Positions 5,781 to 52,700 of a stretch of 64,000 bases of DNA are shown piece by piece. The DNA comes from Anaerolineae bacterium (GTDB taxonomy: Bacteria > Chloroflexota > Anaerolineae > Aggregatilineales > UBA3940). Every line of letters starts with the position of its first letter. Within the stretch, counting starts at the first letter, position 1. The DNA lies in assembly GCA_034435375.1 (NCBI GenBank), contig DAOTXR010000048.1, positions 16,984 through 80,983 on the forward strand. Direction: 5' to 3'. The notes beneath the pieces are model-generated. The model had not been told where the DNA came from and made no database searches. It saw only the letters and a list, made by a program, of their open reading frames with translations. The position numbers and the translations under genes were made by a program.

Positions 5781-5809
5781 TTGACCTGTTTGTGCCTGCA
5801 TGCTACGAT
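5781..5809 (+). promoter_or_regulatory. Sigma-70-type promoter for comM/yifB
   Basis: -35 TTGACC (5781-5786), 17-nt spacer, -10 TACGAT (5804-5809). This places the TSS near 5816, downstream of the ORF-track ATG at 5800. Confidence 0.5.
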
Positions 5810-5844
5810 TGGCCTGCCTATCCCCATTCTCTGGAGATGTAGAC

Positions 5845-7389
5845 GTGCTGGCCAAAGTCAACAGTTGCGCGTTGATCGGGCTGGACGCCATACTGGTCGA
5901 AGTCGAGGTAGATGCCGCCCATGGTATGCCCGGCATCACACTGGTTGGGCTGCCGGACACTGCTGTGAAGGAGTCAAAAGATCGTGTGTGGGCGGCCATC
6001 CGCAACAGCGGCCTGACCTTTCCTAGCAGTAAGCGGCTGACGATCAACCTGGCCCCTGCCGATCTGCGCAAAGAAGGCCCCGCCTACGATCTGAGCATTG
6101 CATTGGGGCTGCTGGTAGCGAGTGGCCAGATTCCTGCCGACACGTTGGATAGTTCGCTGGTGATGGGCGAGCTGTCACTGGATGGTAGTGTGAGGCATGT
6201 ACGGGGCATCCTCTCAGCCACGTATCTGGCACGCGAGCAGGGCTTCGAGCGTGTTTTCGTTCCAGCAGCAGATGCTGCCGAGGCATCGCTGATCCCCGAT
6301 GTGGAAGTCATCCCCGTTGATCACCTCATCTCGTTGGTTGAGCATCTGTTGGGGCTGGACACGATTCCGCCCTTCGACCGGGACAAACTGCATATCCCAG
6401 ACACACCGCCCGGCTATCTGACCGACTTTGCAGATGTGAAAGGGCAGGAACACGTCAAACGTGCGCTGGAGGTCGCAGCGGCGGGGGGGCACAATGTAAT
6501 GATGATCGGCCCACCCGGGGTGGGTAAGACATTGCTGGCGCGGGCTGTGCCAGGCATCCTGCCGCGCATGACGCTCGAAGAGTCGCTTGAGGTTACGCGC
6601 ATCTATTCTGTAGCCGACATGCTGCCCGAAGGTATTCCACTTGTGCGCCACCGACCATTCCGTGCGCCACATCATACCATCAGTCACGCTGGGCTGGTGG
6701 GCGGCGGATCGTGGCCCCACCCCGGTGAGATCAGCCTAGCGCACCGGGGCGTGCTGTTCCTAGATGAGCTTCCCGAATTTGGGCACAGTTTGGAAACACT
6801 TCGCCAACCGTTGGAGGATCGGCACGTAACGGTCAGCCGCGCTTCCGGCTCTATGACGTTCCCGGCCAATTTCATGCTGATTGCAGCCTCAAACCCCTGT
6901 CCATGCGGTTACTATGGCGACCCAGTCAGGCCATGCACGTGCAGTCACGCTATGATCACCCGTTATCACCAGCGTGTCTCTGGCCCGCTTCTGGATCGTA
7001 TCGACATCCACATTGAGGTGCCGCGGGTGGACTACGACAAACTGACCGATGCTCGTCGCGGCGAGTCATCGGAGACAATCCGGGAGCGAGTGCAGGCTGC
7101 CCGTGATCGGCAGGCAACCCGGTTTGGGCAGTCAGAGGAAGGCGGGAAAAAGCTGCTGTGCAACGCCGACATGGGCGCCCGAGAGATTACGCACTTTGCA
7201 CGGTTGGACTCTGACAGCGAGGCCCTGATCCGCATGGCAGTCCAGCAAATGCACCTGAGTGCGCGGACTTACCACCGGGTGCTGAAGCTGAGCCGCACCA
7301 TAGCAGACCTGGAAGACAGTGAGATGATCCGCTCTCACCACTTGGCAGAGGCTCTACAGTATCGGGCGCGGCAGCCACAAATCTCTTGA
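5845..7389 (+). CDS. comM: Mg-chelatase-like AAA+ protein YifB/ComM
   Basis: VLAKVNSCALIGLD family N-terminus, Walker A GPPGVGKT, C-terminal YHRVLKLSRTIADL. GTG 5845 is preceded by GGAGA at 8 nt and lies downstream of the predicted promoter. The ORF-track maximum is 5800..7389. Confidence 0.9.
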   Translation: MLAKVNSCALIGLDAILVEVEVDAAHGMPGITLVGLPDTAVKESKDRVWAAIRNSGLTFPSSKRLTINLAPADLRKEGPAYDLSIALGLLVASGQIPADTLDSSLVMGELSLDGSVRHVRGILSATYLAREQGFERVFVPAADAAEASLIPDVEVIPVDHLISLVEHLLGLDTIPPFDRDKLHIPDTPPGYLTDFADVKGQEHVKRALEVAAAGGHNVMMIGPPGVGKTLLARAVPGILPRMTLEESLEVTRIYSVADMLPEGIPLVRHRPFRAPHHTISHAGLVGGGSWPHPGEISLAHRGVLFLDELPEFGHSLETLRQPLEDRHVTVSRASGSMTFPANFMLIAASNPCPCGYYGDPVRPCTCSHAMITRYHQRVSGPLLDRIDIHIEVPRVDYDKLTDARRGESSETIRERVQAARDRQATRFGQSEEGGKKLLCNADMGAREITHFARLDSDSEALIRMAVQQMHLSARTYHRVLKLSRTIADLEDSEMIRSHHLAEALQYRARQPQIS

Positions 7390-7436
7390 ACAGGAGCGGC
7401 AGCGCCGCCTTCTCAGCACGTTTCCTCCGCAATAGA

Positions 7437-8774
7437 TTACTGAGACGTGCGGGGTAGGCTGACGCCTGTGTACATGGTCGGGAGCCAATTCAGTTCGCGG
7501 GCCTTGGCTTCCAATTCATCGCGGAATCGGGGGTGGGCAATGTTGATCAACGCCCGCACCCGTTCACGGATCGTTTTGCCGTGGAGATAAGCCACCCCGA
7601 ACTCAGTTACGACGTAATGTACGTCGTTACGTGTAGTCACGACGCCTGATCCTGGTTTGAGCTGCCACACGATCCGGCTGATAGTGTCATTTTTGGCGGT
7701 TGCAGGCAGGGCGATGATCGGCTTACCACCCTTGGAGCGAGCTGCACCGCGCACAAAGTCCACCTGCCCACCGACACCACTATAGAACCTCGGCCCAATG
7801 CTGTCGGCGCATACCTGTCCTGTTAGGTCAATTTCCAGGGCCGAATTGATCGAAATCATCTTGTCATTCTGAGCAATCCGAAATGGGTCATTCACGTACT
7901 CGGTGGGATGTAGTTCAACAATGGGGTTATCGTGCACAAAGTCATACAGGCGCTGTGTGCCAAGCATGAACCCGGCAATGATTTTGCCCGGGTGCAATGT
8001 CTTGGCCTCGTTGTTGATGATGCCGCGATCCACCAAATCGATGATGCCATCCGAGAATAGCTCGGTGTGAATGCCCAAATTCTTTTTATCGCCGAGGTAT
8101 TGGAGCACGGCATCGGGGATGCCCCCAATGCCCGTCTGGAGTGTGCTGCCATCCTCGATCATGTCGGCAATGTGCCTTCCGATCTCCTGCTGTATGGGCG
8201 ATGGTTCGCCCATCCTGAACTCTGGCAGGCGGTAGTCTACCTCGACAATGTAGTCAATCTTGCTGACGTGGATAAAACTGTCCCCCAGGGTGCGTGGCAT
8301 GCGCGGGTTGATCTCTGCGATCACGATTTTGGCGACCTCCGCCGCGGTCTTGGTGACCCCCACCTCAACGCCGTAGGAGCAGAAGCCGTGCTCATCGGGC
8401 GGTGAGACGTGGATCAGGGCGACATCGAGAGGCAACTCGGTGCTGTACAAGCGAGGAATCTCGGAGAGAAAGATGGGCGTAAAATCCGCACGTCCATCTT
8501 GTACAGCCTCACGCACATCCGCACTGATGAACATGGTATTCACCCGGATGTGTCCTGTCATCTCGGGATTGACGTAGTCTGCCGCGCCAACGGTGAGGAC
8601 TTGGGCGATCTCCACGTCGTGTAGATTCCGGGCGTGTTCGACCAGGGCCTTGAGTACAACCTGGGGCACTGAACAGTTGCCGGTCAGGAAAACACGCTGG
8701 CCAGATTGAATAACCTGTACTGCCTGCTCCGCCGTACAGCGTCGGTTGCGATAAATCTCCGCCCAGTGTGCCAT
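7437..8774 (-). CDS. Acetyl-CoA hydrolase/transferase family protein (4-hydroxybutyrate CoA-transferase-like)
   Basis: 445 aa. Family-typical N-terminus (...AEQAVQVIQSGQRVF...), GIGGIPDAV and EIDLTGQV motifs. Confidence 0.8.
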   Translation of the reverse strand: MAHWAEIYRNRRCTAEQAVQVIQSGQRVFLTGNCSVPQVVLKALVEHARNLHDVEIAQVLTVGAADYVNPEMTGHIRVNTMFISADVREAVQDGRADFTPIFLSEIPRLYSTELPLDVALIHVSPPDEHGFCSYGVEVGVTKTAAEVAKIVIAEINPRMPRTLGDSFIHVSKIDYIVEVDYRLPEFRMGEPSPIQQEIGRHIADMIEDGSTLQTGIGGIPDAVLQYLGDKKNLGIHTELFSDGIIDLVDRGIINNEAKTLHPGKIIAGFMLGTQRLYDFVHDNPIVELHPTEYVNDPFRIAQNDKMISINSALEIDLTGQVCADSIGPRFYSGVGGQVDFVRGAARSKGGKPIIALPATAKNDTISRIVWQLKPGSGVVTTRNDVHYVVTEFGVAYLHGKTIRERVRALINIAHPRFRDELEAKARELNWLPTMYTGVSLPRTSQ

Positions 8775-8776
8775 CC

Positions 8777-9868
8777 CTAGACCTCCTCCAACAGCACTGC
8801 CAGGTTCTGATTGAGAACCTGCCCATTGTGGACAGCTACGCCGCGCCGCAGCGCCTGGTCTTTGTCAATAGCCGCCTGTGTACCTTCGTTAGCTAACGCC
8901 TGGATGAAAGGCCAGGCTGCATTCAGATAGGCATGGGTCGCGGTGCGAGCGACCACGCTGGTCATGTTGGGCACGCAGTAGTGGATCACATCTTCCTCGA
9001 TGAAGACCGGATCGGCGTGGGTGGTTGGGCGGCTAGTCTCGACACATCCCCCCTGGTCAATCGAGATATCCAGGATCACACTGCGTGGGCGCATCGAGCG
9101 TACCATCTCACGGGTAATGAGAATCGGGGTCTTGGCGCCGGGGATCAGGACTGCGCCCACCAACACACGGGCATGCCTGACGACACGGGCCAGATTAAAA
9201 TCATATGCCATCATGGTCACAACCAAACCACCGAAGCGCTCCTCGACCATGCGTAGCCGGTCCAGATCCCTGTCGAGCAGATGGACCCGCGCCCCCAGGC
9301 TGAGGAATGTGCGGGCAGCGTTCACACCTACGACACCTGCACCTAGGATGCACACGTCAACAGGCGGAATGCCTGCTGCGCCACTGATCAACACGCCGCT
9401 CCCGCCACTATCATTTTGCAGCCAACGGGCGGCAATGGTAGGCGTCATACGGCCCGCGATCTCACTCAGTGGGTATAATACTGGCAGCACCCCGTCATCG
9501 CGCTGGATGGTCTCATATGCGACAGTCGTGATCTTCCGCTCGATCAATCCCCGCACCAACTCCCGCGGACGGGCCATCAAGTGCCAAAAGGCGCAGATCG
9601 TCTGACCCTCGCGCAGCATATCCATCTCATCGGCCCGCACGCTGCTGACCCGCAGCACCAGGTCTGCACGTTCGTAAACGCCACGTGCGCCGTAGACAAT
9701 CCGACCTCCGGCACGTTCGTAATCTGCGTCCGAAAAGCCAGCGCCCTCGCCTGCTCCGGCCTGAACATAGCAGCGGTGGCCGTCTTGTGTGGCTAGACGC
9801 ACACCTTGCGGCGACAGACCCACCCGGTATTCACCGGACTGGGTTTCGACAGGAATTCCGATATCCAT
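8777..9868 (-). CDS. ald: Alanine dehydrogenase
   Basis: MDIGIPVETQSGEYRVGL..., ILGAGVVGVNAA Rossmann motif, VLIPGAKTP, DISIDQGGCVETSRPTTH, HYCVPNM. ATG 9868 is preceded by AGGAG at 9 nt. The ORF-track GTG at 9889 is less likely. Confidence 0.9.
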   Translation of the reverse strand: MDIGIPVETQSGEYRVGLSPQGVRLATQDGHRCYVQAGAGEGAGFSDADYERAGGRIVYGARGVYERADLVLRVSSVRADEMDMLREGQTICAFWHLMARPRELVRGLIERKITTVAYETIQRDDGVLPVLYPLSEIAGRMTPTIAARWLQNDSGGSGVLISGAAGIPPVDVCILGAGVVGVNAARTFLSLGARVHLLDRDLDRLRMVEERFGGLVVTMMAYDFNLARVVRHARVLVGAVLIPGAKTPILITREMVRSMRPRSVILDISIDQGGCVETSRPTTHADPVFIEEDVIHYCVPNMTSVVARTATHAYLNAAWPFIQALANEGTQAAIDKDQALRRGVAVHNGQVLNQNLAVLLEEV

Positions 9869-9895
9869 GAGTCCATAACTCCTGCCCACAAGGGA

Positions 9896-10351
9896 TTATT
9901 GAGCCTGCTCAATCTCAAGGTGATCATCGACCCGGTAGACTCCCACTGTCGCGGACGCCAACCTCACAGCGGTGGTTTTCTCGTCTGGGTTGGTTACTGT
10001 GCCATGCAACGTCACGATCCCACCGTAGCTGGTAACGGTGATGGCCGGCGCTATCCCTTTAAGGGCAGGGTCGGCGGCCAAAGCGCGCGCCACAGCACGC
10101 TCGATGTCGGCGTCGCTGTATAGGCGGTCGATGACTTTTTCAACGCCTGGCACAGTGGCAGCGGCGTACAATACTCTCCGCCGTACCATCTCATTGAGCA
10201 CGACCCCCTTCACCGTTACCGCTCCCTTCTCAACGCTGACGGTGAACGGGACACGCGACTCGCGCACAACATTGTCACCTTCGATGGCCTCGATGACACT
10301 TTCGTAAATTTCCAGATCTGCTTCAGGCTGCTGTAACTCGATTGTTTGCAT
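9896..10351 (-). CDS. BON-domain protein (two BON repeats, OsmY-like)
   Basis: 151 aa. Two repeats of the pattern VTVKGVVLNEMVRRRVLYAAATVPGVEKVIDRL / IVTLHGTVTNPDEKTTAVRLASATVGVYRVDDHLEI. Confidence 0.7.
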   Translation of the reverse strand: MQTIELQQPEADLEIYESVIEAIEGDNVVRESRVPFTVSVEKGAVTVKGVVLNEMVRRRVLYAAATVPGVEKVIDRLYSDADIERAVARALAADPALKGIAPAITVTSYGGIVTLHGTVTNPDEKTTAVRLASATVGVYRVDDHLEIEQAQ

Positions 10352-10461
10352 GGTGGTCTTCCTTGCAGGTTACTCCCTGGCAATCAATCATGCCACAAGC
10401 TCATGAGAAGTGTCAATGAAAAACACCAGATCTGCATGTGACAATTGTCACCAATGCCGGC

Positions 10462-12777
10462 TCAGAGGTCAAAGAAGGTTTGCAGGTTGGCTCGGCGGAA
10501 ATATTGACGATAAGCTGACGATTCCTCCAACAAGGCATGGATCGCATCTTGCAGCGGGTCGGGGTCCTGCAAATCGGGGATGCCGCCGACAGTCAGGTGG
10601 GCTCGGTCGCCATCGATCCATTGTAGACTGATCTGCCCCTTGGCCACCAGCCAGTCCAATCCATAGCGAATCGCGATCTCACGCTGGGCAATTGCCGCAG
10701 CCAATCTGAGCACCGAGACCTCGCCACCGTAAACGCGCAGAGCATACTTGACTAGCCCAGCCAGCCGTCTCAGAAAAGCGCGTGGCGTATCTGCGGGAAT
10801 GTGATGAGCAATGACATAGAACTTGCGTGCGCCCGTCAGTTCCAACATCTGCCCCAGTTCCTGTGGTCCTGGGGGTGCAGTCCAGATCGCCAGAACTTGG
10901 CAACGCTGTGCCGTAAAGCGGCTGATGACACGTTCAGGCTCGAACGGCAATTCATCCGGCTTGATGGCCTCAGCCCACACGCAATACCTATCGGCAGGGA
11001 GCTTGGACAGAGGAGCTGGCTCGGCTCGCAGATCGACGATCTCGTAACGTGGCTCGACTTCGATCGCCACGCCTGGCGTTGGGCGGCTGCTGACCCACTC
11101 GATCTGCAACGAGCGATGGCCCTTGTAATCATTGATGCGTGGAATGTACAGCAGGTCAAAAACCGTGCTCGGCAGTGCATGTTCAGCGCCACGCCACCAT
11201 GTGACAGTTTGGCTAACTCCACGATCATCCTCGATCGTCACGCGACGATGCTTACGGTCCATCCCAAACAGCGTGTCGGCGACGATTCGCAGGCGCTTCG
11301 TCATCAGATGGACAGGCGGATTGCCTTCGCCGAATGGCGCAAGCCGATTCAGTTCATCCGCGAGGCTCATCGAGAGATCATCCAGCCTGACCTCGGCGTC
11401 AACGTGCAAACCGGTGGTCACGCTGCGATCCCAAATCTCACGTACTGTGTTTGACAGCCGACGCCGAAACTGGGGGACAAGATCGGCGGACAGAGCTAGC
11501 CCTGCTGCGCCGGGGTGCCCACCGTGCGTAATGAGCAGGTCGGCATTCATAGCAATCGCTGCGCCAATGTCTACACCTGGCACCGAGCGGGCTGACCCAC
11601 GAACGATCTCGCCAGGCGGACCGGCCAGCAGTACAACTGGTCGGCGATACTGCTCAACCAACCGGGCAGCAACAATGCCGATCACGCCAGGATGCCAGCG
11701 CTCCCCGACTAGCACCAGCGCCTCGAAATTCAGCAGCGACGAGTCACGCGCAATCTGCTGCTGGGCAGCGGCGTAAATCTGGTCTTCGATCTGCTTTCGT
11801 TTGTCATTCAGCATCTCAAGCTGAGCTGCGATCTGCGCGGCCAACGTGCGGTCGTGTGTCGTCAGCATCTCGACAGCCAAACGCGCCTCGTCCAGACGGC
11901 CCAACGCATTGAGGCGCGGTCCTACTTGATAGCCAATCGTATCAGCCGACAGATTGGAAGGATCCACCTGAGCAGCTCGCATCAATTCCTGCAGGCCCAC
12001 GCGATTGGGATAACGCAATACGTCAATGCCAAGCTGAAGCAGGTGACGTGTGTCGCGGCGCTGTGTGGCTACATCTGCCACAATGCCCAGGGCTACCAGA
12101 TCAAGCAGCCGACGCTCATCGCCAGCATGCCCAGCCAGCTCGTATAGTCGCTGGACGAGCTTGAATGCCACCCCTACCCCCGGAAGATCGTGCAGAGGAT
12201 GGTCGAGGGGCAACCGTTGTGGGTTGACAACAGCCAAAGCCTCGGGCAGTATGGGCGGCAGGGCATGATGGTCGGTGATCAACACCGCGACTCCCGCAGT
12301 GTGCGCCAGTTCAACCGCGTCGTGTGCAGTGATGCCTGTGTCACATGTCAGAACCACCCGGACTCCCTGGTCGATGTAGCTGCGCAGCACCTCAGAGTGT
12401 ACGCCATGCCCATGCTTCAGACGATGGGGGATATGATAGTCCACATCCGCGCCCAGGACGCGCAGCGCATCTACCAGCAGCGAGGTGGAGGTCTGGCCGT
12501 CTACATCAAAGTCACCCCATACCAGAATGCGTTCACCGAGTTGGATGGCCTCGATCAGTCGTCTAGCGGCAACATCAACATCCGGGATGGCGGTGGAGGG
12601 GGCAGGAACATAGCGCCGTGGATCGAGGAAAGCCAGCGCCTCGTCAGCGTCAGTGATGCCACGTCGCGCCAGGATTTCGGCCACCAGGGGGTGGCCTCCC
12701 ACAGCATCACGCAGCTCCTGACTGACGATCACATCTTGGGGAAACAGCCACTCCACAGATCCGCTCCACTGCTCCAC
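10462..12777 (-). CDS. recJ: Single-stranded-DNA-specific exonuclease RecJ (long form)
   Basis: 771 aa. DHH-family motifs (VWGDFDVDGQTS, VLTCDTG, ITDHH) and DHHA1 (GGHPGAAG). About 200 aa of extra C-terminal sequence. Confidence 0.9.
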   Translation of the reverse strand: MEQWSGSVEWLFPQDVIVSQELRDAVGGHPLVAEILARRGITDADEALAFLDPRRYVPAPSTAIPDVDVAARRLIEAIQLGERILVWGDFDVDGQTSTSLLVDALRVLGADVDYHIPHRLKHGHGVHSEVLRSYIDQGVRVVLTCDTGITAHDAVELAHTAGVAVLITDHHALPPILPEALAVVNPQRLPLDHPLHDLPGVGVAFKLVQRLYELAGHAGDERRLLDLVALGIVADVATQRRDTRHLLQLGIDVLRYPNRVGLQELMRAAQVDPSNLSADTIGYQVGPRLNALGRLDEARLAVEMLTTHDRTLAAQIAAQLEMLNDKRKQIEDQIYAAAQQQIARDSSLLNFEALVLVGERWHPGVIGIVAARLVEQYRRPVVLLAGPPGEIVRGSARSVPGVDIGAAIAMNADLLITHGGHPGAAGLALSADLVPQFRRRLSNTVREIWDRSVTTGLHVDAEVRLDDLSMSLADELNRLAPFGEGNPPVHLMTKRLRIVADTLFGMDRKHRRVTIEDDRGVSQTVTWWRGAEHALPSTVFDLLYIPRINDYKGHRSLQIEWVSSRPTPGVAIEVEPRYEIVDLRAEPAPLSKLPADRYCVWAEAIKPDELPFEPERVISRFTAQRCQVLAIWTAPPGPQELGQMLELTGARKFYVIAHHIPADTPRAFLRRLAGLVKYALRVYGGEVSVLRLAAAIAQREIAIRYGLDWLVAKGQISLQWIDGDRAHLTVGGIPDLQDPDPLQDAIHALLEESSAYRQYFRRANLQTFFDL

Positions 12778-12996
12778 TAGAGAAATGCGATAGATTAGCT
12801 ATACTTATTAAGGTGTTGAAGAGGTTGCACTGTAGTCCATCAAGTATACCCACCACACGAATCTCACCAAATCCCACAAAGGACTCGCGTTGGGGATGCT
12901 TGTGGACGGGCGCACTGCACTTAAAATCGGGTCGCTAACCATACGCTCCGATCGTATCCTTGTATCTTCACCAGAAAGTTAAGTATACGAGGGAAA

Positions 12997-15714
12997 ATGA
13001 GCATAAACCACCATCCTGATGATCCCTTTGGCTCCCGCGCGGTGATCGAGACTTCAGGGGGGCCAGTGGTCCTATACCGGCTGGACCGCCTTGAGATGCA
13101 AGGTGTGGGGCAGGTTTCGCGCCTGCCTTACTCAATCAAGATTTTGTTGGAGGCCGCCCTCCGTCAGCTTGACGATTTCGAGATCACACACGACGATGTG
13201 GTCCACTTGGCGCAGTGGCCTGGTCCTGCCCAGCAAGAAATACCCTTTAAGCCTGCGCGTGTCATCTTGCAGGACTTCACGGGTGTGCCTGCCTTAGTTG
13301 ACCTGGCCGCCCTGCGCTCAGCACTGGGGCGATTGGGCGGTGACCCAGTTCGTATCAACCCAACCGTGCCGGTGGACTTGGTGATCGATCACTCGGTGCA
13401 GGTAGATCAGTATGGATCGGCCATTGCTCTAATGTACAACGCCGAACGTGAGTTTGAACGCAACCGGGAGCGCTACGAATTCTTGAGGTGGGGTAAAGAC
13501 GCCTTTGATAACTTCCGCGTCGTACCGCCGGCCACCGGTATTGTCCACCAAGTTAACCTAGAGTATCTGGCGAGCGTCGTTCAGACCAGATCGACCGAAG
13601 GTAAGGTCTTGGCCTACCCTGATACGCTAGTCGGTACCGACTCGCATACCACGATGATCAACGGATTAGGCGTTGTCGGCTGGGGCGTCGGGGGCATCGA
13701 GGCGGAGGCCGTGATGCTCGGCCAACCCATTGCCATGCTGATGCCAGAGGTAATCGGCTTCAGGCTGACGGGTCAGCTCTGCGAGGGTGCGACGGCCACC
13801 GATCTAGTACTGACCGTAACCCAGATGCTGCGCCAGAAGGGCGTCGTGGATAAGTTCGTCGAGTTCTATGGCCCTGGCCTGAGCTGCCTGACCCTGCCCG
13901 ACCGGGCGACTATTGCCAACATGTCACCGGAGTACGGGGCGACAATGGGCTTCTTCCCGGTTGATGCCGAGACGCTAAGCTACTTGCGCAGCACAGGCCG
14001 CAGCCCGGAACTAGTCGACTTAGTCGAGCGCTACTGCAAAGAGCAGGGTCTCTTCCGTACTGACGAGACGCCTGCTCCCCTGTTCACCGATACGCTGGAG
14101 CTAGACCTGAGCACCATTGAGCCGAGCGTGGCTGGACCGAAACGCCCTCAGGATCGCATCCCGCTGCGCGATGCCAAGCAGGCTTACCACGTCGCGCTGT
14201 CTGGCATTCCTGACCGCAACCGGAGTGGGCGTCGCATGGAGATCGAGGTTGATGGCAGACCAGTCGAGATTGGTGATGGCGCGGTGGTGATCGCGGCCAT
14301 CACAAGCTGCACCAACACCTCGAATCCATCGGTGATGGTCGGCGCTGGACTACTTGCCCGCAAGGCGGTTGAGAAAGGGTTGAGCGTACCGCCTTACGTC
14401 AAGACCAGCTTGGCCCCTGGTTCGAAGGTCGTGACTCGCTACCTGGCTGGCGCTGGATTGCTGCCTTATTTGGAGGCGCTCCGCTACCATGTCGTCGGCT
14501 ATGGCTGCACAACATGTATTGGCAACAGTGGCCCGCTTCCACCAGAGGTGGAGGGAGCTGTTAAGGCCAATAACTTGGCGGTGGCGGCTGTGCTGAGCGG
14601 CAACCGCAACTTTGAAGGGCGCATCCACCCGCTAGTCCGCCTGAACTACCTGGCCTCGCCACCACTGGTGATCGCCTATGCACTGGCTGGGACGGTTGAC
14701 ATCGACTTCGAGCATGAACCGCTCGGTTACACGGCAGGCGGTGAGCCGATCTACCTGCGAGATATCTGGCCTACCCAGGGTGAGATCACAGAGACCATGA
14801 AGAACTCGCTTAAGCCAGAACTCTTCCAGGCTGAGTATGCCAACGTGTTCGATGGCGACGCGACCTGGAAAGCTATTGCCGCGCCGCGGGGTGAGTTGTA
14901 TGCCTGGGATCCGGCCTCGACTTACATTCAGGAGCCGCCATTTTTTGTCAACCTGACGCCGGAGGCGCCACCACTCCATGCGATTCGAAACGCGCGAGTG
15001 CTGGCCCTGCTGGGTGATTCCGTCACCACGGACCACATCTCGCCTGCCGGCTCGATCCCGGCAGACAGCCCTGCTGGTCGCTATCTGATTGCACACGGCG
15101 TGGAACGGCGCGACTTCAATTCATACGGCTCACGGCGCGGCAATCACGAAGTCATGATGCGCGGCACTTTTGCCAACATCCGGCTGCGCAACCAGCTTGT
15201 GCCCGGTACCGAAGGTGGCATGACGGTCTACCTGCCTGCGGGCGCGTCGGCGTACGCAGATGGCCAGGTGATGAGCATCTATGATGCTGCTATGCGCTAC
15301 AAGGATGAGGGCACACCGCTCATCATCATTGCGGGAAAGGAGTATGGGACCGGCAGCTCACGTGACTGGGCTGCCAAGGGCACGAGCCTGTTGGGTGTTC
15401 GGGCAGTGCTGGCCGAGAGCTACGAGCGCATTCACCGCAGCAACCTGATTGGCATGGGGGTGCTACCCCTGCAATTCAAGGCGGGCCAGAGTGCTCTGAC
15501 ACTCGGCCTGACAGGGTTTGAGCTTTTCGACATTGAGGGCCTGAACGATGATCTCCAGCCCCGGCAGGAAGTTGTGGTGCAGGTACGGCACGCCGACGGA
15601 TCTAAGACCGCCTTCCCGGTGATCGCCCGCCTCGATTCGCCCGTAGAAGTGAAGTACTATCGCAATGGTGGCATTCTTCACACTGTGCTGCGTGACATGT
15701 TGCAGGGATCGTAG
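12997..15714 (+). CDS. acnA: Aconitate hydratase A
   Basis: 905 aa. Collinear with AcnA/IRP family ([54 protein letters not shown]). Confidence 0.95.
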
Positions 15715-15831
15715 GGCTTGCAAGGAAGCCTCTCCACAACCACTCTGGGGAAGGCATCAACGCACATCGTCTCGCTGCCTCGATTGCACATGTGGCGGCA
15801 TTGGCCCATAATGCTGAGAAAAGAGGCAGGT

Positions 15832-16761
15832 ATGCAACGGCCTACGCGACTCACAACTCTGCCGGCAGCGACGATCACAATAGCCCTTATGTTAGCGGCC
15901 CTGGCATGCAATGCTGGGGCCAACAGGCCTGATGTGGCAGCTACTGTGCAGGCCGTCTATCTGACCATCACTGCCCAGGCAGCTACAGCAGGCGTGCCAG
16001 TCACAGATACACCTGTTGGCAGCCCATCACAGGCCACAACGACATCCACCCCGATCCAGACCTACACTCCTACTGCCTCGCCTACACCGCCTGATAGTCG
16101 CTCCAGCAATGGGCCAGATATCGCCATCGTGCGCTGCACGGGTGGCATTACCGTGGACGGCGACAGCGCTGACTGGGCTATGCTGTCCGATGTATGGCCC
16201 TTCGTATTGACGACGAGCACCTATGGCGCTGAGCAGTGGTCAGGTACAAGCGATCTCTCCGGGCAGGCACGCCTGTGCTGGACTGACAACGCGCTCTACC
16301 TATTTGTCGAAGTGACCGATGACGCACACGTCCAGACGCAAACCGGCAGCAATGCCTGGAAAGGTGACGAGGTTGAGTTGGTCTTCGATGGCGACCTGCG
16401 TGGAGACTTCTACGAGAAGCGCTGGAACAACGACGATACGCAGCTTGGCCTCTCTCCGGGCGATTTCAGCGATTTGCCTCCGGCAGCGGTGCGGTACTTC
16501 CCCTCGATCCAGGGCATGGATGATGTGCAGCTAGCCGCACGGAGGCCCATTGCCGTAGGGGGAAACTACACCCTGGAAGCAGCAATCGCGTGGGACGTGC
16601 TGGGCGTCATGCCGCAATCGGAGGGACATTACGGTTTGTGTCTGGCTCTCAGTGATAATGACCAGGTGGGTCAAGCCAGCCAGGATACCATGGTGAGCCA
16701 CTGCACGCGGCTGCTTGTCTCGGATCCTACGACATGGGCCACAGTGCAGTTGATGCCATAG
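15832..16761 (+). CDS. Secreted (possibly lipid-anchored) CBM9-like carbohydrate-binding domain protein
   Basis: Start moved to ATG 15832 (MQRPTRLTTLPAATITIALMLAALACNAG signal peptide, purine-rich AGAGGCAGG upstream). Then a Thr/Pro linker and a domain with DGDSADW...ARLCWTDNALYLFVEVTDD...GDEVELVFD pattern typical of CBM9/DOMON-like sugar-binding modules. Confidence 0.6.
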   Translation: MQRPTRLTTLPAATITIALMLAALACNAGANRPDVAATVQAVYLTITAQAATAGVPVTDTPVGSPSQATTTSTPIQTYTPTASPTPPDSRSSNGPDIAIVRCTGGITVDGDSADWAMLSDVWPFVLTTSTYGAEQWSGTSDLSGQARLCWTDNALYLFVEVTDDAHVQTQTGSNAWKGDEVELVFDGDLRGDFYEKRWNNDDTQLGLSPGDFSDLPPAAVRYFPSIQGMDDVQLAARRPIAVGGNYTLEAAIAWDVLGVMPQSEGHYGLCLALSDNDQVGQASQDTMVSHCTRLLVSDPTTWATVQLMP

Positions 16762-16762
16762 C

Positions 16763-18136
16763 CTACTTGAATACCAGCAGGTAACGCCCGCGTGTCAGCC
16801 AGGGCGTGCCAGTATACATGTATGTCAACCCGTCTACGATCAGCAGGTCAGCGTGGCCAATCCCCCAGTTGTCGACCACATTGCTCAGCACCGGGTTGCC
16901 AGCGAACTTCTCCCACGGGGCGTCGATTTCTTGGCTGCGGGCAAACGCTAGTGCGAACTGGTTATCACGCCCGACGGCATGTGAGTTAGGCCCGCGAATG
17001 CCCTCGTAGGTCATGTAATAATAACCATTGTCAAACACCACATCCGCTGAGGTCACGAAACGGAAATCGTAGTAGGGGTTGGCATCCATGCCCTGCGCGT
17101 CGATCGGCCCATATTCGGCTGCCCCGCTGAGGATGGGATTGGATTGGCACGCCGTGAAGGTCTTCAAATCGTTCAGATCGGACCAGAAGCACCCCATGTG
17201 GCCAGGGTTCTGCCCCAGCCCGACGAATACGTACAGCCTCCCCTCGGAGATGAATAGACCTGGTGGTCCACCTGCCATGCAGTCCTGATCGGGTGTCCAG
17301 AAGGGATGTGCTCCCACTAGGCGTGTGTCATCGCAGCCACGATCCCAGCCAAACCACATGCCAGTACCTGGCACCTGCCAGGGCTGCGCCCACACGATGC
17401 CATCCATTGACCAAGTGAGCCAGGCTGCAGCCCCGTGTTCGTAGACCATGAGAAAGCTACGGTCCGGTGCACGGATCACACGTGGGTATTGCTGCTGCCA
17501 GGTCTGGTCGTCGTTGTCACAGGGACAGCTATTACAGGGAAACAGGCACTGCGGCCTGTCGAGCGTGAAGTGTTGGCCACCGTCCGTGCTGACCCATAAC
17601 GTCACGCAGCCGGGGTATTGGACTTCGCCGCCGCACGAGTCGTGGATGCCGGCTGAGTGTGTGCTGGCGTGTAGATACGACCAGTACACGTTGCCGCCCA
17701 TGTGGAGCGTATCTGATTCGCCCATCGGCAACCCAGTATCGGCGATGTTCAATATCCACTGCGCCTTGCCTGACCAGAGGTCCGACAAGGTGGCAGGATC
17801 GCCTGGTGCAGGGGTCGGAGTCAGCGTGTTGGTCGGTGTGAAGGTGGGAGTTGGCGTGAAGGTGGGCAAAGGGGTATCGGTGGGTGTTGAGGTTAACGTT
17901 GGCGTCGAGGTCAATGTGGCGGTCTCAGTGAGTGTAGCTGATGGGGTGATGGTTGGCTCGACTGCCCTGGTAGGTAGCTGTGTGGCCGTGAGTGGGATGT
18001 GAGTTGGGAGAGGTGGCGGGAGCGGGCTGGGGGTAAGTGAGATCGACGCCACAGATATAGGATTAACACCGCATGCGATGGCAAACCATGCAACAATGAG
18101 TAGGCTGATGGCAGAGCGACGTAGGCAGTGACGCAA
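16763..18136 (-). CDS. Secreted protein: signal peptide, Thr/Pro linker, Cys-rich domain of unknown function (paralog A)
   Basis: 457 aa. MRHCLRRSAISLLIVAWFAIACG signal. C-terminal ~330 aa is collinear with ORF 18176..20005 (shared blocks DTGLP.GESDTL, NSCPCD.DDQTWQQQYPRV, MVYEHGAAAW, DCMAGGPPGL, YYYM.YEGIRGP, DNWGIGHAD, TYMYTGTP). Confidence 0.75.
   Translation of the reverse strand: MRHCLRRSAISLLIVAWFAIACGVNPISVASISLTPSPLPPPLPTHIPLTATQLPTRAVEPTITPSATLTETATLTSTPTLTSTPTDTPLPTFTPTPTFTPTNTLTPTPAPGDPATLSDLWSGKAQWILNIADTGLPMGESDTLHMGGNVYWSYLHASTHSAGIHDSCGGEVQYPGCVTLWVSTDGGQHFTLDRPQCLFPCNSCPCDNDDQTWQQQYPRVIRAPDRSFLMVYEHGAAAWLTWSMDGIVWAQPWQVPGTGMWFGWDRGCDDTRLVGAHPFWTPDQDCMAGGPPGLFISEGRLYVFVGLGQNPGHMGCFWSDLNDLKTFTACQSNPILSGAAEYGPIDAQGMDANPYYDFRFVTSADVVFDNGYYYMTYEGIRGPNSHAVGRDNQFALAFARSQEIDAPWEKFAGNPVLSNVVDNWGIGHADLLIVDGLTYMYTGTPWLTRGRYLLVFK
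17800..18005 (-). repeat. Low-complexity Thr/Pro-rich linker coding repeat inside paralog A
   Basis: Encodes TPSATLTETATLTSTPTLTSTPTDTPLPTFTPTPTFTPTNTLTPTPAP. The DNA shows reiterated GGTG/GGCG-rich units. Confidence 0.6.
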
Positions 18137-18175
18137 AGGTGGTTCTCCTGGGAAGAGGGGATGTAGCGCTGGTGC

Positions 18176-20005
18176 CTACTTGAACGTCAGGACATACCGC
18201 CCACGAGTGAAGCCTGGCGTACCGGTATACATGTATGTCACTCCATCAACAACCAGGATGTCAGCATGGCCTATGCCCCAGTTATCAACCACATCGCTCA
18301 GCACCGGATTGCCGGGATACTTTTCCCATTTGCCGTCCACGACCGAGCTGCGGGCAAAAGCCAGTGCAAACTGATCGTCACGACCTGTCGCCGGCGAACT
18401 TGGCCCACGGATGCCCTCATAGGCCATATAGTAATAACCGTCTATGCGTACCACATCGGCGGAAGTCGCGTAGCGAAAGTCAAAATAGGGGTTGGCTGAC
18501 GCGCCTCGCGCCTCAAGCGGTCCATACTCCCGCGCACCGTCGAAAAGAGGATTCGCGCTGCATGGCGTAAACCTATATTCATTGAGCGATGCCGAAAAGC
18601 AGCCCATTGAGCCAGGGTTTTGACCCAACCCAACAAAAACATATATCCGTCCACCAACAACCAGAAGTCCCGGAGGGCCACCAGCCATGCAATCCTTCTC
18701 ATGCTCGAAAAATGGGCTGGGACCGATCCGCATCCAGGGTTGACAAGCACCTACGTCAAGTGTCCACACGCCGGTGCCAGGGATGGACCTAGGACGTGTC
18801 CATGTCACGCCATCGGATGAGTAGCTGATCCAGGCTGCAGCGCCATGCTCGTAGACCATAATATACCCCCTGCCAGGCGCCCATGTCACGCGCGGGTATT
18901 GTTGTTGCCAAGTCTGGTCGTCGTCGTCGCAGGGGCAGCTGTTGCACTTGAAGATGCAGCGCGGCTCAGCCAGCGAGAAGTGTCGCCCGCCGTCAGTGCT
19001 AACCCATCGAGTCACGCAGCCAGGAAAATCTACCGTGTTGCCGCACGAGTCGCGTATCCCGGCAGAGCGGGTGCTGGCGTGCAGATAAGCCCAGTAGACA
19101 TTGTTGCCCATGTAGAGCGTGTCCGACTCGCCGACCGGCAGTCCTGTGTCAGGTACTTGGAGCACCCAGTCTGCCCGGCCGCTCCAGAAGTCGGCCAGCG
19201 AGGCATAGACGCTCGAAGCCGGATCGGGGGCCGGAGGCGAGGGAACAGCTGCCACGCTTGGAGCCTGGCTATAACTGCTGACCACGGGAACGTCGTTTAG
19301 ATTGCCATTGATCTGGCATAACCAAGCAGCAACCCAGACCTGTGCTCCGCCGCGCTCCACGAGGACCCACGATTCACTTGGATCACGGCCCAGAACAGAC
19401 ATGGTGACACCGCTGCCAACCAGGCCAATCTGGGGATACCCCGTGCCGGGGCCGGATCGCAGGCGCAGCTCTGTGGCTGTTGTGGCAGTGACGCTCCCAG
19501 GTACAGAGGAGGAAGACTCAGCAACCGCCGTTCCAGCAGCGCTGCCCGCCACCGAGTCAGTGACCGGGACTCCTGCCAAGTCGCCTGCAAAGGTGCATAG
19601 CCAGCCCGCGATCCAGCCGCGCATGCCATGAAACTCGATCACGATCCAGCTCCCATCGGCATTGCGACCCAACACAGGCAGAGTCGTGTCGGCAGGCACC
19701 AACCCCATCTGACTGTAGCCTGTGCCAGGGCCGGATCGGATGCGTAGGGTGTCGGTCGTCGTTGCTAGGGCGGCAATTTGTAGAGGAGCGGGTTGCTGCG
19801 GCGCACGCTCGATGGCGGTAGGAACGACCTGGATCGGAGATGAGACAGCTTCTACATGTCTCTCAGGAGGTTCAGCGTCCTCAGGGGCGGGTTTCTGCCC
19901 CTGTGAAGTGACTAGCGTCACGGTGAGTGCTAGCATCACCACAGCGGCAGAAACCTGCCACAGAAGATATTTTCGCCTGGTGAGATTCTCAAAAGCGGTC
20001 TTCAT
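18176..20005 (-). CDS. Secreted protein: signal/anchor, two SH3b domains, Cys-rich domain of unknown function (paralog B)
   Basis: 609 aa. Two SH3b-like units (TLRIRSGPGTGYSQMGLV...WIVIEFHGMRGWIAGWL; ELRLRSGPGTGYPQIGLV...WVLVERGGAQVWVAAWL). The C-terminal domain is paralogous to 16763..18136. Confidence 0.75.
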   Translation of the reverse strand: MKTAFENLTRRKYLLWQVSAAVVMLALTVTLVTSQGQKPAPEDAEPPERHVEAVSSPIQVVPTAIERAPQQPAPLQIAALATTTDTLRIRSGPGTGYSQMGLVPADTTLPVLGRNADGSWIVIEFHGMRGWIAGWLCTFAGDLAGVPVTDSVAGSAAGTAVAESSSSVPGSVTATTATELRLRSGPGTGYPQIGLVGSGVTMSVLGRDPSESWVLVERGGAQVWVAAWLCQINGNLNDVPVVSSYSQAPSVAAVPSPPAPDPASSVYASLADFWSGRADWVLQVPDTGLPVGESDTLYMGNNVYWAYLHASTRSAGIRDSCGNTVDFPGCVTRWVSTDGGRHFSLAEPRCIFKCNSCPCDDDDQTWQQQYPRVTWAPGRGYIMVYEHGAAAWISYSSDGVTWTRPRSIPGTGVWTLDVGACQPWMRIGPSPFFEHEKDCMAGGPPGLLVVGGRIYVFVGLGQNPGSMGCFSASLNEYRFTPCSANPLFDGAREYGPLEARGASANPYFDFRYATSADVVRIDGYYYMAYEGIRGPSSPATGRDDQFALAFARSSVVDGKWEKYPGNPVLSDVVDNWGIGHADILVVDGVTYMYTGTPGFTRGRYVLTFK

Positions 20006-24010: not shown

Positions 24011-24847
24011 CTAAAAGAGACGGCGGAGTAAGCCCACGACCAGTGTCAACATCCCCATTGCGGCCAGCGAAATAATCACCGCAGCAGGAGCAATACCGCC
24101 TTGTTCGAGCTGGGCCGTCTGCGGTTCGGGCAGTACATCGGGTTGAATGTAGGGCTGCGGCGGAGTGAAGGTTGGCAGCGGCCCTGCAGCCGCCTGTCCC
24201 TCAAGGGCTGGTGGCTGGGTGAAAACGCCCGTTGGGATGAACAAAGCCGTGGTGGTGGCTGTCTCCGCTGCTCCAGGCGTTTGTAGCAGGAGCGTGGCAG
24301 TGGCCTGGATCGCTGCCTGGGTGGGATCGACGGTAGGGGGGGCAGGTGGCGTGACTGCCGGGACGGTGGTGATGTCGCCCCGCACGATCACCAGCGGTGC
24401 ATACACCCATGCCTTGCCATCGGGTCCGTCCGCCCATGCTACTAAGTACCAGTCATAGCCCAGCCAACGCCCAATGATGGGCAGCATCAGCCCTGGCTGA
24501 AGTTCAGCCAGCACATCAAAGTCCATACCTGGACCTGTGCGCAAGTTGGTCGGGTTGCCGAAGATCTCAGCCAGGACTGGCACGGGGGTCGGAGTGCGGC
24601 TTGGCGTAGCTGTCGGCCCCCCGATCATCGTGGGCGTTGCGGTCGGGAAGAGAAAGCCGCTGACCGGGGTGTTGGATGGCTGCTGCTCGACAGGCAGGTC
24701 GCCGGCGGCAGTTGCCGCGCTGGCAGAGACGCCGAGCGTGAGAAGTGCCAGTAAACCCAGCACAAATGTGAGTCTGATGCTTTTAGGGAAAGTCAACCAG
24801 CAGTTCATGGCGGGCGTGATCGTACCGCTGCACAGAGAAGTTGGCAA
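24011..24847 (-). CDS. SH3b-domain surface protein with C-terminal membrane anchor
   Basis: 278 aa. Signal-like N-terminus, Pro/Thr-rich spacers, SH3b-like NLRTGPGMDFDVLAEL...WYLVAWADGPDGKAWVYAPLV, C-terminal helix GIAPAAVIISLAAMGMLTLVVGLLRRLF. The start may be the internal MNCW at 24808. Confidence 0.65.
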   Translation of the reverse strand: MPTSLCSGTITPAMNCWLTFPKSIRLTFVLGLLALLTLGVSASAATAAGDLPVEQQPSNTPVSGFLFPTATPTMIGGPTATPSRTPTPVPVLAEIFGNPTNLRTGPGMDFDVLAELQPGLMLPIIGRWLGYDWYLVAWADGPDGKAWVYAPLVIVRGDITTVPAVTPPAPPTVDPTQAAIQATATLLLQTPGAAETATTTALFIPTGVFTQPPALEGQAAAGPLPTFTPPQPYIQPDVLPEPQTAQLEQGGIAPAAVIISLAAMGMLTLVVGLLRRLF

Positions 24848-49779: not shown

Positions 49780-52700
49780 TTACTTTTCGTCATGCGTTGA
49801 GAACCAATCTTGAGAATCGGCCCCATTTGATGCACGTCGCCTGAGGCTGCGCCAGTATAGCCAGCTCACCACTGCCGCGACGAGTGCAGCCCCAACTAGC
49901 CCTGCCGGCACCACTGGGCTTTGCCGAAGACGCTCGACAAGAATCGGCGGCGCTGGTGGAATCGTGTCAGCAAAATCGGCAGAGGCAGTAGTGAAAGTCC
50001 ACAGCGGGCCGCGTATAGTATCACCCTGTGCATCAGCAGCCTCAACTTGCCAATGGTAGGTGCGCAGCGGATCCAGCTCACTCATTTGAAGTGCAGGCTC
50101 GCTGATTCCCTCGCCCAGGAGAGGTGGATCATCTACCACACCCAGATAGACGCGGTAGGACAGTGGGTTACAGCGGTCAGGCGGCGGTCCCCAGGTCAAC
50201 AGCGGGGTCAGCGAGACGCCATCTCGCAGGTTAGCCGGATCTGGAAACTGCGGCTGAGGGGGGAATACTGCTGGGAGGTCTGGCTCGTAGCGCAGCGTGA
50301 GGAGATGGTTAGCTTCAGCCAGATAGATCAGGTCATGGCTGTTCTGTGGCCTCACTGCGACATCACTGGCGTAGCTGCCAAGCCAGTACCCTTGCTCCTG
50401 CGGATTGGCGTTGTCAGTCAGGTCGATCACACGCAGGCCGCATGTGCCATCGGCCACGTATAGCTGGTCGCTGCCAGCTATCCCGCCAAACGCCACGCTT
50501 TGTGCTTCACCCGGCGTATCGACCAGACTCGCCAGGTGGAGTGTACCCTCATCGGTCAGCTCGAGCAGCAAGACGCCCTCTGTGCCTAGCGCCAGCGCCG
50601 CACGGCGGCCATCGGCGGCCAGCGCCAGGCCAAGCGCCTGGGAGTAACCTGAGTCGAAGACCGACAACAAGTGCGGGGCGGACGTGACAGCGCTCACGTC
50701 CAGCACGTCAATGCCACCCTCCCAGCTCACCAACAGGTTATTGCCATCCAACGGCAGCAAGTCGCGGACAAACTGGCCTGAAGCGGAGGTATAGAGAAAT
50801 AAGCTTTGCGGATGAGCTGGTTCAGATACTCCAACCACGAGCAGCCCTCCTCGGTGCAGAGCTAGATAGGCTCGCTGCCCAACCTGCACCGCCTGATCCA
50901 CGGCATCAATGGTCGTGAGCTGGCCCAGGAGCGAGAGAGCTGTGCCATCCCAGGCGACAGTCGCGAGGCCCCCGTCCAGGCTCAACAGCAACCCTCCACT
51001 GCCGGACATTGGCGCGATGTGGCGTCCAGGCGTTGCCAGCGGCAACGAGGCGATCAAGTGCGGGGATGTTGGATGGGAGACATCCCAGGCGGTCAGCGCT
51101 GTGCCGAGTGCAAATAACACACTGCCCTCCCGATACAGGGCGTGGACTGGTTCGTTGTAAAAGGTGCTGCTCGCACCTGATGCAGTCAGGTCGATTAGCC
51201 CCAGACCGTCTGCACCGTAAGCTGCGTAAATCGTCGTGCCATAGACCAAGAATGTCTCGCCGGCTGCCGCGATCCTGCCGACCTGAGTGGCAGCGCCTGA
51301 GGCGAGTGCGCTCACGTCATATAGCCGGATGGCGTCACCGGGGTCAACGGCCCACAACAGTGCATCGACGAAAAAACCATGTGTGGCCACGGCAGTGAGC
51401 TTGCCTGCCGCCAGCACTGCTAGGCGATCGGGGTTGCTCACCAGAAGCCGAATCAGTGTATCGTCGGCTAGACCGTAGACCGTTCGCCCATCCGGGGCGG
51501 TAATCAGGGCATTGGGACGCCGGGCGCTGGTTGTGCTGCGCACGCGGATGCCGCCGGTTGGGTCAGCCAGGTCGACGATCGCCACTTGTCCATCTGCCAG
51601 CGGCAGGTAGGCTCGTCCCATGCTGAGGTTCAGACCCATGGCTGGCGCGGGCGTGCTGATGTGTGACACGGGTAGCAGGTAACGGCGGTCGTAGATGGAC
51701 AGCCCGGCAGCATCGGCGACATAAACAAAACGACTGTCCAACACAACGCCGGTGGCCGGGCCATAGGCGCTATGCTGGGCGAACAGATGTGGTTCGTCTC
51801 CCGCCGCCAGGGTATAGAGCCTTACCCCCTGGTCGCCTGCCGCCACAGCGATGGTATCCCCGTCGAGCGACAGGTCACGCACGGCCAGACCATCAAACGA
51901 CTGGCTTGATAGATGGGGTAGGACATTATCAGCCAGCTCCAGCAATGACCAGCCACCACGGCCCCCCACCAACAAATAGTTACCCTGGACTGAGACCCGA
52001 TGGGCCTCAGGGACGGTGGCGTAGATTCCGGCTGGGATTAGCGCTCCACCCTCGGTCAGGGTATAACGGCGCAGCCCGCCAGTACCAAGTGCCAGGATCA
52101 CCTCACTGCCTGATGACCATGCCCGGTAAGATGAGCCAACCGAAGGAGTGGCATCTGTCTCGATGGGATAGTCAGGAGCAGAGAGGTCCAGCACTTGCAG
52201 CTCAGGTCCATCTCCTGCGCTGCTCACCAACAGGCGATTTCCGACAGCCGAGAGACTACTCACGTGCCCCAAGCCGGTGTACACCCGCACCAGGACTAGG
52301 TTGGCCACAGCCTGGGCATCGAGCATCGCGATGTGGTCACCATCGACCGCATACAGGCGCGAGCCGCTGGCTGCTATGTGCACAGCAGGCACATCAAGGC
52401 GAGCCAGGCGGTTCATCTGGGTGGGTGAGCCTACGTCGGCCACGATGAGGCTCTCTTCTTCGCACAGGTAAGCCTGCCTGTCATTGAGTGTCACGCAGGA
52501 CACACTGTGGCCATCCTCAAGCGGCAGTACGCCAACCAGCGTTGGCAATGCAGATTGGCTGACGTCGACAGCGACCAGTCCGGCAACGCCGCCAGCGACA
52601 AACAATGTTGAGTCGCGGCGCACGATGTCAAGCGCAGGGCCGGGTAGCTGAAAGGTACCCAACAATGTCTCGTTGCGTGGGCCAGCCGGATCGACGACCG

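Follow-up and report, generated by a model that had tools for sequence, protein, structure and literature searches.

Two adjacent genes in a 64,000-nucleotide stretch of an Anaerolineae bacterium genome (assembly GCA_034435375.1, contig DAOTXR010000048.1, positions 16,984 to 80,983 of the forward strand; the whole stretch is hereafter called the window) encode predicted surface proteins, paralogs A and B, whose shared C-terminal domain is, according to a structure model, a divergent five-bladed beta-propeller of the superfamily that comprises glycoside hydrolase (GH) families 43, 32, 62, 117 and 130. The family to which both belong is uncharacterised and lineage-restricted within this well-known fold superfamily. 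The reading favoured here, which we consider just about as likely to be right as wrong, is that these proteins are extracytoplasmic, surface-tethered carbohydrate-active enzymes forming a new family in the GH43-type propeller superfamily, whose substrate face would be made rigid by disulfides and whose catalytic constellation would be non-canonical; we infer both the catalytic competence and the substrate class. The three open reading frames (ORFs) delimited by a first-pass annotation of this DNA were confirmed, at 15832..16761 on the plus strand and at 16763..18136 and 18176..20005 on the minus strand. The latter two are the paralogs, with the following features (domain positions throughout are numbered with residue 115 of paralog A as residue 1):

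18176..20005, minus strand: paralog B, 609 amino acids (aa), with an N-terminal membrane anchor or signal, two SH3b domains and the propeller domain
19901..19966, minus strand: hydrophobic N-terminal segment of paralog B, aa 14-35, LLWQVSAAVVMLALTVTLVTSQ, a signal anchor or signal peptide predicted from sequence
19598..19756, minus strand: SH3b (SH3_3) domain 1 of paralog B, about aa 84-136 (Pfam PF08239, best stretch 85-135)
19319..19477, minus strand: SH3b (SH3_3) domain 2 of paralog B, about aa 177-229, with the second LRLRSGPG repeat and the second Pfam stretch
18179..19204, minus strand: predicted five-bladed beta-propeller of paralog B, aa 268-609, with ten conserved Cys and all invariant family residues, 66% identical to the domain of paralog A
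16763..18136, minus strand: paralog A, 457 aa, with a lipoprotein-type signal, a Pro/Thr linker and the propeller domain
18071..18136, minus strand: predicted signal peptide of paralog A with the lipobox LLIVAWFAIAC, Cys22 (PROSITE-type lipobox pattern)
17795..18070, minus strand: Pro/Thr-rich linker of paralog A, aa 23-114, read from the sequence
16766..17794, minus strand: predicted five-bladed beta-propeller of paralog A, aa 115-457 (structure model and Foldseek matches)
17519..17548, minus strand: CLFPCNSCPC motif, domain residues C83, C87, C90 and C92, in the top-face loop between blades I and II
17480-17497, minus strand: invariant QQQYPR at the entry to blade II, directly after the CLFPCNSCPC loop, located in the sequence of paralog A

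Residues 115-457 of paralog A and 268-609 of paralog B form one collinear BLASTP alignment of 343 aa, with 66% identity, 80% positives and one gap (E 2e-168), in which all the motif blocks quoted by the first-pass annotation can be seen, in agreement with its claim that the two ORFs end in a collinear domain with long identical blocks. Profile searches place this domain in no described family. None of the Pfam and NCBIfam models scored above cut-off against it; the sole Pfam match of the two propellers was GH43, with 20.4 and 21.3 bits against a cut-off of 32.2 and covering the last ~80 residues (profile positions 178-257), and the Pfam profiles of GH130, GH32, GH68 and GH62 gave no match at E<=1 for either paralog. 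The same sub-threshold GH43 match, on blades IV-V, was found at E<=1e-3 in 22 of 96 family members (best 5.4e-7), and searches of PDB sequences, by single sequence and by profile, returned single-blade local matches only, to GH117 and GH43, so that no characterised family can be assigned, as had been stated earlier. The AlphaFold 2 (AF2) model of the paralog A domain, obtained from a 39-sequence alignment, has a mean predicted local distance difference test score (pLDDT) of 89.1 and a predicted template-modelling score (pTM) of 0.90, and consists of five four-stranded blades in which the N-terminal strand closes blade V. Comparison of this model with the PDB by Foldseek gave 385 matches at E<=1e-3; the 35 best listed are all GH43, GH62 or GH117, with GH32 and sialidases lower, and the probability was 1.00 for many GH43 entries. 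The resemblance to five-bladed propeller glycosidases, which had been noted only loosely, was thus correct at the level of the fold.

Judged by its sequence, the family is not a canonical GH43, and its centre appears remodelled yet highly constrained. The reference used was the GH43 beta-xylosidase YagH of E. coli. It shares its subfamily with XynB of B. pumilus, an enzyme for which the PDB has the catalytic mutant E186Q (entry 5ZQX). A global hhalign alignment of the family profile with YagH reached a probability of 0.2 and was not usable, for which reason each blade was aligned on the glycine of its AB hairpin; the register is therefore that of a motif alignment and not of a structural superposition. 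In YagH/SXA numbering, we take D14 to be the base, D127 the pKa modulator and E186 the general acid. The correspondence by blade is as follows:

Blade I: YagH D14 (base) in NPDPSL; family E26 in MGESDT; acid apparently kept, as Glu and not Asp, in a motif-based register
Blade III: YagH D127 (pKa modulator) in FDPSLF; family P177 in GPPGLF; lost
Blade IV: YagH E186 (general acid) in TEGAHLY; family S249 in TSADVVF; lost
Blade V: YagH His in SGHGSLL; family H314 in IGHADLL; kept

Glu26 is 97% conserved in the family and Pro177 at least 97%, and a separate HMMER alignment to 4QQS puts T/S248 at the general-acid position, which is also non-acidic. Asp28, Asp251 and Asp316, all invariant in the family, stand two residues further into the innermost strand of blades I, IV and V, respectively; the YagH residues at these places are Ser, Ala and Ser. 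Since the equivalents of Asp127 and Glu186 are missing, hydrolytic activity is not to be assumed, and the glycan-processing role given to the paralogs is one that we infer. An hhalign comparison of the family profile with the GH43-like protein P0230 had 96.9% probability but aligned the blades out of register, and was discarded as of no use for mapping the catalytic residues.

Compared with GH43 as a whole (PF04616; for example B. ovatus GH43A, 5JOW, B. pumilus beta-xylosidase, 5ZQJ, and YagH), the family has the same five-bladed fold, with blade motifs that align on the AB-hairpin Gly, an acid that the motif-based register puts at the base position (D14 versus E26), a Gly-His pair entering blade V (H314) and the blade signatures YYxxY and NP[VI]L; unlike GH43, it has three extra axial Asp, ten conserved Cys, long top loops with putative disulfides and a lipoprotein or Pro/Thr-stalk architecture, and it occurs almost only in Anaerolineae. 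The GH117 anhydro-alpha-L-galactosidases (3P2N, 5TA7, 4AK5), members of the same superfamily, provide the best PDB sequence matches (E 5.5e-4 to 9e-4) and are among the top Foldseek matches, but the similarity is not collinear: a single blade is matched out of register (family blade IV to GH117 ~155-222; E 5.5e-4 to 3e-3 over all such matches), and the structures compare with TM-scores of 0.38-0.41 and a root-mean-square deviation >10 A. Propellers of GH130, GH32 and GH62, together with the unnamed GH43-like proteins P0222-P0241, match blades IV-V of the family profile with E 1e-12 to 1e-8; full-length collinearity is seen only in P0241-like proteins, and none has the ten-Cys pattern, QQQYPR or GIGHAD. 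P0241 itself (341 aa) is a Cys-less cousin that passes the GH43 Pfam cut-off (36 bits) and has in common with the family the TLDDxWxGKA motif of the N-terminal strand and the YYYMxxEG blade; it could represent a bridging family that would help to trace the remodelling of the active site.

The ten Cys common to both copies, at domain positions 54, 63, 83, 87, 90, 92, 154, 172, 202 and 216, occur together in 176 of 181 full-length members; the "at least eight" conserved Cys counted earlier were rightly called conserved and were an undercount. The AF2 strand map places all ten residues in the BC and DA loops of the top face or at the ends of adjoining strands, and the separate Cys-rich domain of the first-pass annotation has to be given up, these residues being part of the propeller's own loops. 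Because the rare losses come in pairs (one member lacks C54 and C90, another C154 and C172), the Cys may be regarded as disulfide partners, which would make five disulfides; with the predicted export signals described below, this pattern fits the disulfide-rich extracellular fold that had been suggested. A Radical-SAM-like or iron-sulfur reading of the CX3CX2C motif was judged unlikely, given predicted export and this pairwise loss. The top loops span 13-35 residues in the strand map, save the short BC loops of blades II, III and V, and the bottom loops 2-10 residues; positions conserved at 97% or more make up 38 of 156 in the top loops versus 3 of 45 in the bottom loops (Fisher p 0.011), so that conservation on the modelled top face looks active-site-like. 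The invariant polar set (E26, D28, Q100-Q102, Y103, R105, E119, R245, S249, D251, E264, R267, H314, D316) clusters at the innermost-strand entries and BC loops and is conserved at >=96% across orders, and both paralogs keep every invariant residue.

A word-indexed protein search returned 796 homologs, and the 120 of them that were listed, each at least 50% identical to the query, are almost all unnamed or called "hypothetical protein" and come from Anaerolineae or Chloroflexota metagenome-assembled genomes (MAGs). One Joint Genome Institute record labels the homolog P0049 "beta-xylosidase", a name that finds no support in the family. In a profile search of 1.84 billion cluster representatives, 238 proteins were found at E<=1e-3; full-length relatives end at about E 1e-109 and the next proteins, at about 1e-12, are GH43, GH130, GH32N or BNR_2 propellers, and because of this gap the family can be considered compact and well separated. 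In a genome set of 185,579 species 196 stretches were confirmed, of which 80 were kept for all locus-level counts given here. These 80 are essentially all from Chloroflexota (Anaerolineales, Thermoflexales, Ardenticatenales, Promineifilaceae and Aggregatilineales), the exceptions being one Zixibacteria-labelled MAG and one "uncultured bacterium" (L021); the family is thus almost confined to the Chloroflexota class Anaerolineae. The sole label from another phylum belongs to L014 (DASRZI010000441.1, labelled Candidatus Zixiibacteriota), a 4.3-kb contig whose copy is 51% identical and for which, the contig being short, mis-binning is as likely as horizontal transfer.

The predicted place of action of the domain is outside the membrane, at the cell wall or within it. 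In the set of 106 homologs that are extended at the N-terminus, a lipobox is seen in 41 and a hydrophobic segment of another kind in 35, and the linkers that follow the signal in the family have a median combined Pro, Thr, Ser and Ala fraction of 0.66. Paralog A (LLIVAWFAIAC) and the CBM9-like protein encoded beside it (TIALMLAALAC) match the PROSITE-type lipobox pattern and are predicted lipoproteins. An Arg-Arg pair near the N-terminus of both paralogs had raised the hypothesis of twin-arginine export or of a cofactor, which was rejected, since the pair is not conserved over ~120 homologs, in which lipobox or plain hydrophobic signals predominate. Accessory domains are rare in the 96 members (SH3_3 in 4, LysM in 1, CarboxypepD_reg in 1). 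The tree assigns paralog B and two other SH3b-bearing proteins, P0025 and P0030, to different clades, which suggests that wall-binding modules were recruited repeatedly. Paralog B and a few homologs resemble in this respect the SH3b- or LysM-tethered cell-wall enzymes of monoderm bacteria; in contrast to these, the catalytic-type domain is a propeller and not an amidase, peptidase or lysozyme fold, and most members have no wall-binding module.

On the favoured reading of a surface-tethered carbohydrate-active enzyme, paralog A would be held at the surface by a lipid anchor and a long Pro/Thr stalk, and a membrane anchor plus two peptidoglycan-binding SH3b modules would do the same for paralog B. 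The long loops of the top face, which is the active-site side in these enzymes, would be stapled by the five putative disulfides, and the invariant polar set would surround an axial funnel. Glu26 would act as the base and His314 would be retained, the missing acid being supplied from elsewhere, for example by Asp251 or Glu264, and an axial metal might be held by Asp28, Asp251 and Asp316. Most likely, such an enzyme would cleave or remodel a cell-surface glycan. Its substrate would probably be a conserved envelope polymer of the organism itself and not environmental plant hemicellulose, because the family is almost restricted to a single class, is steadily conserved, has a low copy number and has no uptake or catabolic linkage. 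A more specific version, in which the paralogs are founding members of a new carbohydrate-active enzyme family that uses Glu26, His314 and the axial Asp trio (which may bind metal) on a five-disulfide top face and remodels an Anaerolineae-specific envelope or sheath polysaccharide during filament growth, is tentative and, taken in all its parts, doubtful; if a new family is indeed represented, it would merit its own CAZy number, and its catalytic apparatus would be one without precedent among GH43-type propellers. Bacteria of the class Anaerolineae are filamentous and abundant in sludge, sediments and hot springs; few have been cultured, and their cell envelope is poorly understood. A predicted surface-exposed family that diverges about as slowly as RecJ may thus offer a handle on the biology of this envelope, and a new mechanism or specificity could emerge from a GH43-superfamily scaffold with two canonical catalytic residues replaced and a different invariant polar set kept. 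The family appears as a good candidate for biochemical characterisation and not as a surprising new system.

Several observations weigh against an enzymatic role of this kind. Two of the three GH43 catalytic residues are replaced (Asp127 by Pro177 and Glu186 by Ser249), and the TM-scores of the model to solved glycosidases, in the Foldseek comparison with the PDB, are only ~0.4-0.54, at 11-18% identity. The Cys co-losses come from one sequence per pair only. Unbiased clustering of 842 neighbouring ORFs from the 80 loci yielded no conserved partner, the best non-self cluster reaching 14/80 and being probably a shadow ORF, and no conserved neighbour, transporter or regulator was found at these loci. 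A full-text literature search on the family found no paper.

Among the alternatives, a non-catalytic propeller, that is, a surface lectin, receptor or adhesin that binds a glycan or another ligand in the funnel without cleaving it, is unlikely. It would accommodate the Pro and Ser at two of the three catalytic positions and the absence of linkage to a sugar transporter or catabolic gene, and non-enzymatic five-bladed propellers such as tachylectin-2 are known; the invariance of E26, D28, E119, D251, E264, H314, D316 and four Arg, at >=96% across orders, is however more typical of catalysis, and, in the motif-based register, the blade-V His and an acid at the base position are retained. Somewhat less probable again is a metal-dependent enzyme of other chemistry (a phosphodiesterase, apyrase-like enzyme, lyase or cyclase), with a metal bound through Asp28/Asp251/Asp316 and/or the CX3CX2CXC motif and an anionic envelope polymer, teichoic-acid-like or a phosphorylated glycan, as substrate. 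The three invariant Asp at equivalent i+2 positions (innermost strand of blades I, IV and V), the lining of the top face by at least four invariant Arg and the resemblance of C83-x3-C87-x2-C90-x-C92 to metal-binding motifs would agree with such a function, as would the existence of five-bladed propellers with axial Ca2+, namely apyrases and many GH43s. Against it, the closest structural matches listed are all glycosidases, the general secretion or lipoprotein signals without a conserved twin-arginine motif argue against a pre-assembled cofactor, and pairwise Cys co-loss fits disulfides. Finally, an ordinary GH43 arabinofuranosidase or xylosidase that scavenges plant hemicellulose with the CBM9-like protein as substrate-binding partner, in essence the glycan-processing set of the first-pass annotation, as the weak GH43 Pfam matches, the "beta-xylosidase" label of P0049 and the xylan or cellulose ends that CBM9 modules classically bind might suggest, is very improbable, since the GH43 score is under the gathering cut-off over ~80 aa only, counterparts of Asp127 and Glu186 are lacking, the convergent CBM9 gene has a homolog nearby in only 2/80 loci, no sugar-uptake context or context resembling a polysaccharide-utilisation locus is present, and the family is almost confined to one bacterial class, with a conservation comparable to that of RecJ.

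The duplication that gave rise to the two paralogs appears, from sequence comparison, to be older than the split from other Anaerolineae. In the shared region, A and B have 66% nucleotide identity and 43% at third positions, with a nonsynonymous divergence (dN) of 0.25, a saturated synonymous divergence (dS) of 3.3 and a dN/dS of 0.08, values that point to purifying selection on both copies. Paralog B is closest to proteins of other metagenomes (P0004 and P0002, both 68%) and not to A, and a neighbour-joining tree, built without bootstrap, joins A to P0008/L006_9, L009_1 and P0017; the early date follows from these separate orthologs of A and B, and the old, retained duplication with substantial nucleotide divergence proposed in the first-pass annotation is borne out. 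Tandem pairs are uncommon, occurring in 3/80 loci. A metagenomic protein of 767 aa, P0121, contains two complete propellers in one chain (about residues 40-395 and 405-765) and is the domain-level counterpart of the tandem gene pair in the window. In L006 (9110-10808) a second propeller copy is split into overlapping ORFs at 9110-9955 and 9879-10808, which suggests a frameshift, due either to a pseudogene or to an assembly error.

Regarding the gene models, paralog B starts with ATG, with GAGGAAG upstream, and an identical protein is present in public records, where it is annotated with PF08239; SH3_3 is above the Pfam cut-off (E 3.9e-21, 75.4 bits versus 27) in two stretches. Paralog A starts with TTG, 8 nt 3' of AGGAG, and its stop codon is at 16763-16765. 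The described difference between the copies, one with a Thr/Pro linker and the other with two SH3b domains, was found to be accurate. The public call for paralog A (P0001) has 320 aa and begins at the internal Met138; the region lost (window 17725-18136, minus strand) holds the lipobox signal, the Pro/Thr linker and ~23 conserved propeller residues. Over this missing 5' part, a spurious antisense ORF of 85 aa has been called (compare Logan contig SRR10095342_1532; L086, L087). The TTG at 18136, the AGGAG ribosome-binding site and the architectures of the homologs support a predicted product of 457 aa. Promoter and terminator scans at the locus gave background level only.

The third gene of the locus is the neighbour of paralog A:

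15832..16761, plus strand: CBM9-like predicted lipoprotein gene, 309 aa, with the lipobox TIALMLAALAC, a Thr/Pro linker and CBM9_1 at ~16219-16752

The match of its product, for which the public gene call is also 309 aa, to Pfam CBM9_1 (PF06452; E 3.8e-16, 60 bits versus 23.4, profile positions 19-182 of 185) upholds the earlier description as a CBM9-like protein. The proposed head-to-tail arrangement of this gene with the paralogs does not hold, since the strands are opposite: the CBM9-like gene is convergent with paralog A, 1 nt separating their 3' ends, and only B and A, in this order, are co-directional and head-to-tail, with a gap of 39 nt. By tblastn, the two loci with a CBM9 homolog near the propeller both come from one MAG among the closest relatives, and one is also present in the relatives L001-L003; in these loci it adjoins aconitase, and RecJ where the contig reaches, with ComM too in L001 and L006, and the genes inserted between it and the propeller differ among loci. 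The adjacency is thus general synteny of related genomes and not a functional module, and the functional "set" proposed in the first-pass annotation finds no support. Likewise, no co-directional, conserved linkage to a binding protein, transporter, regulator or carbohydrate-active enzymes was found that would define a polysaccharide-utilisation locus or an operon with the CBM9 gene. Between syntenic genomes, identity is 58-64% for the propeller, 56-69% for RecJ, 55-63% for the CBM9 protein and 73-76% for aconitase; the propeller hence diverges about as fast as RecJ and the CBM9 protein and faster than aconitase.

The flanks of the locus in the window are housekeeping genes (ComM-like ATPase, acetyl-CoA hydrolase, alanine dehydrogenase, RecJ, aconitase, two ABC exporters, TilS and SdhA), and the rest of the window is similar. 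A neighbourhood of ComM, propeller, CBM9-like gene, aconitase and RecJ is common to L001, L006, L009 and window positions 5800-20005, the window version being rearranged, with ComM beyond RecJ and with acetyl-CoA hydrolase and alanine dehydrogenase inserted; in L001, a lactamase_B gene separates the propeller from CBM9, and CBM9 is in turn separated from aconitase by a glyoxalase gene. Elsewhere in the window, a 278-aa ORF with no Pfam match at E<=1e-5 (24011-24847, minus strand) lies between the ABC exporter pair and tilS, and a 1389-aa ORF (49780-53949, minus strand), whose sole Pfam match is to LVIVD repeats (E 7e-35), probably encodes another large beta-propeller surface protein.

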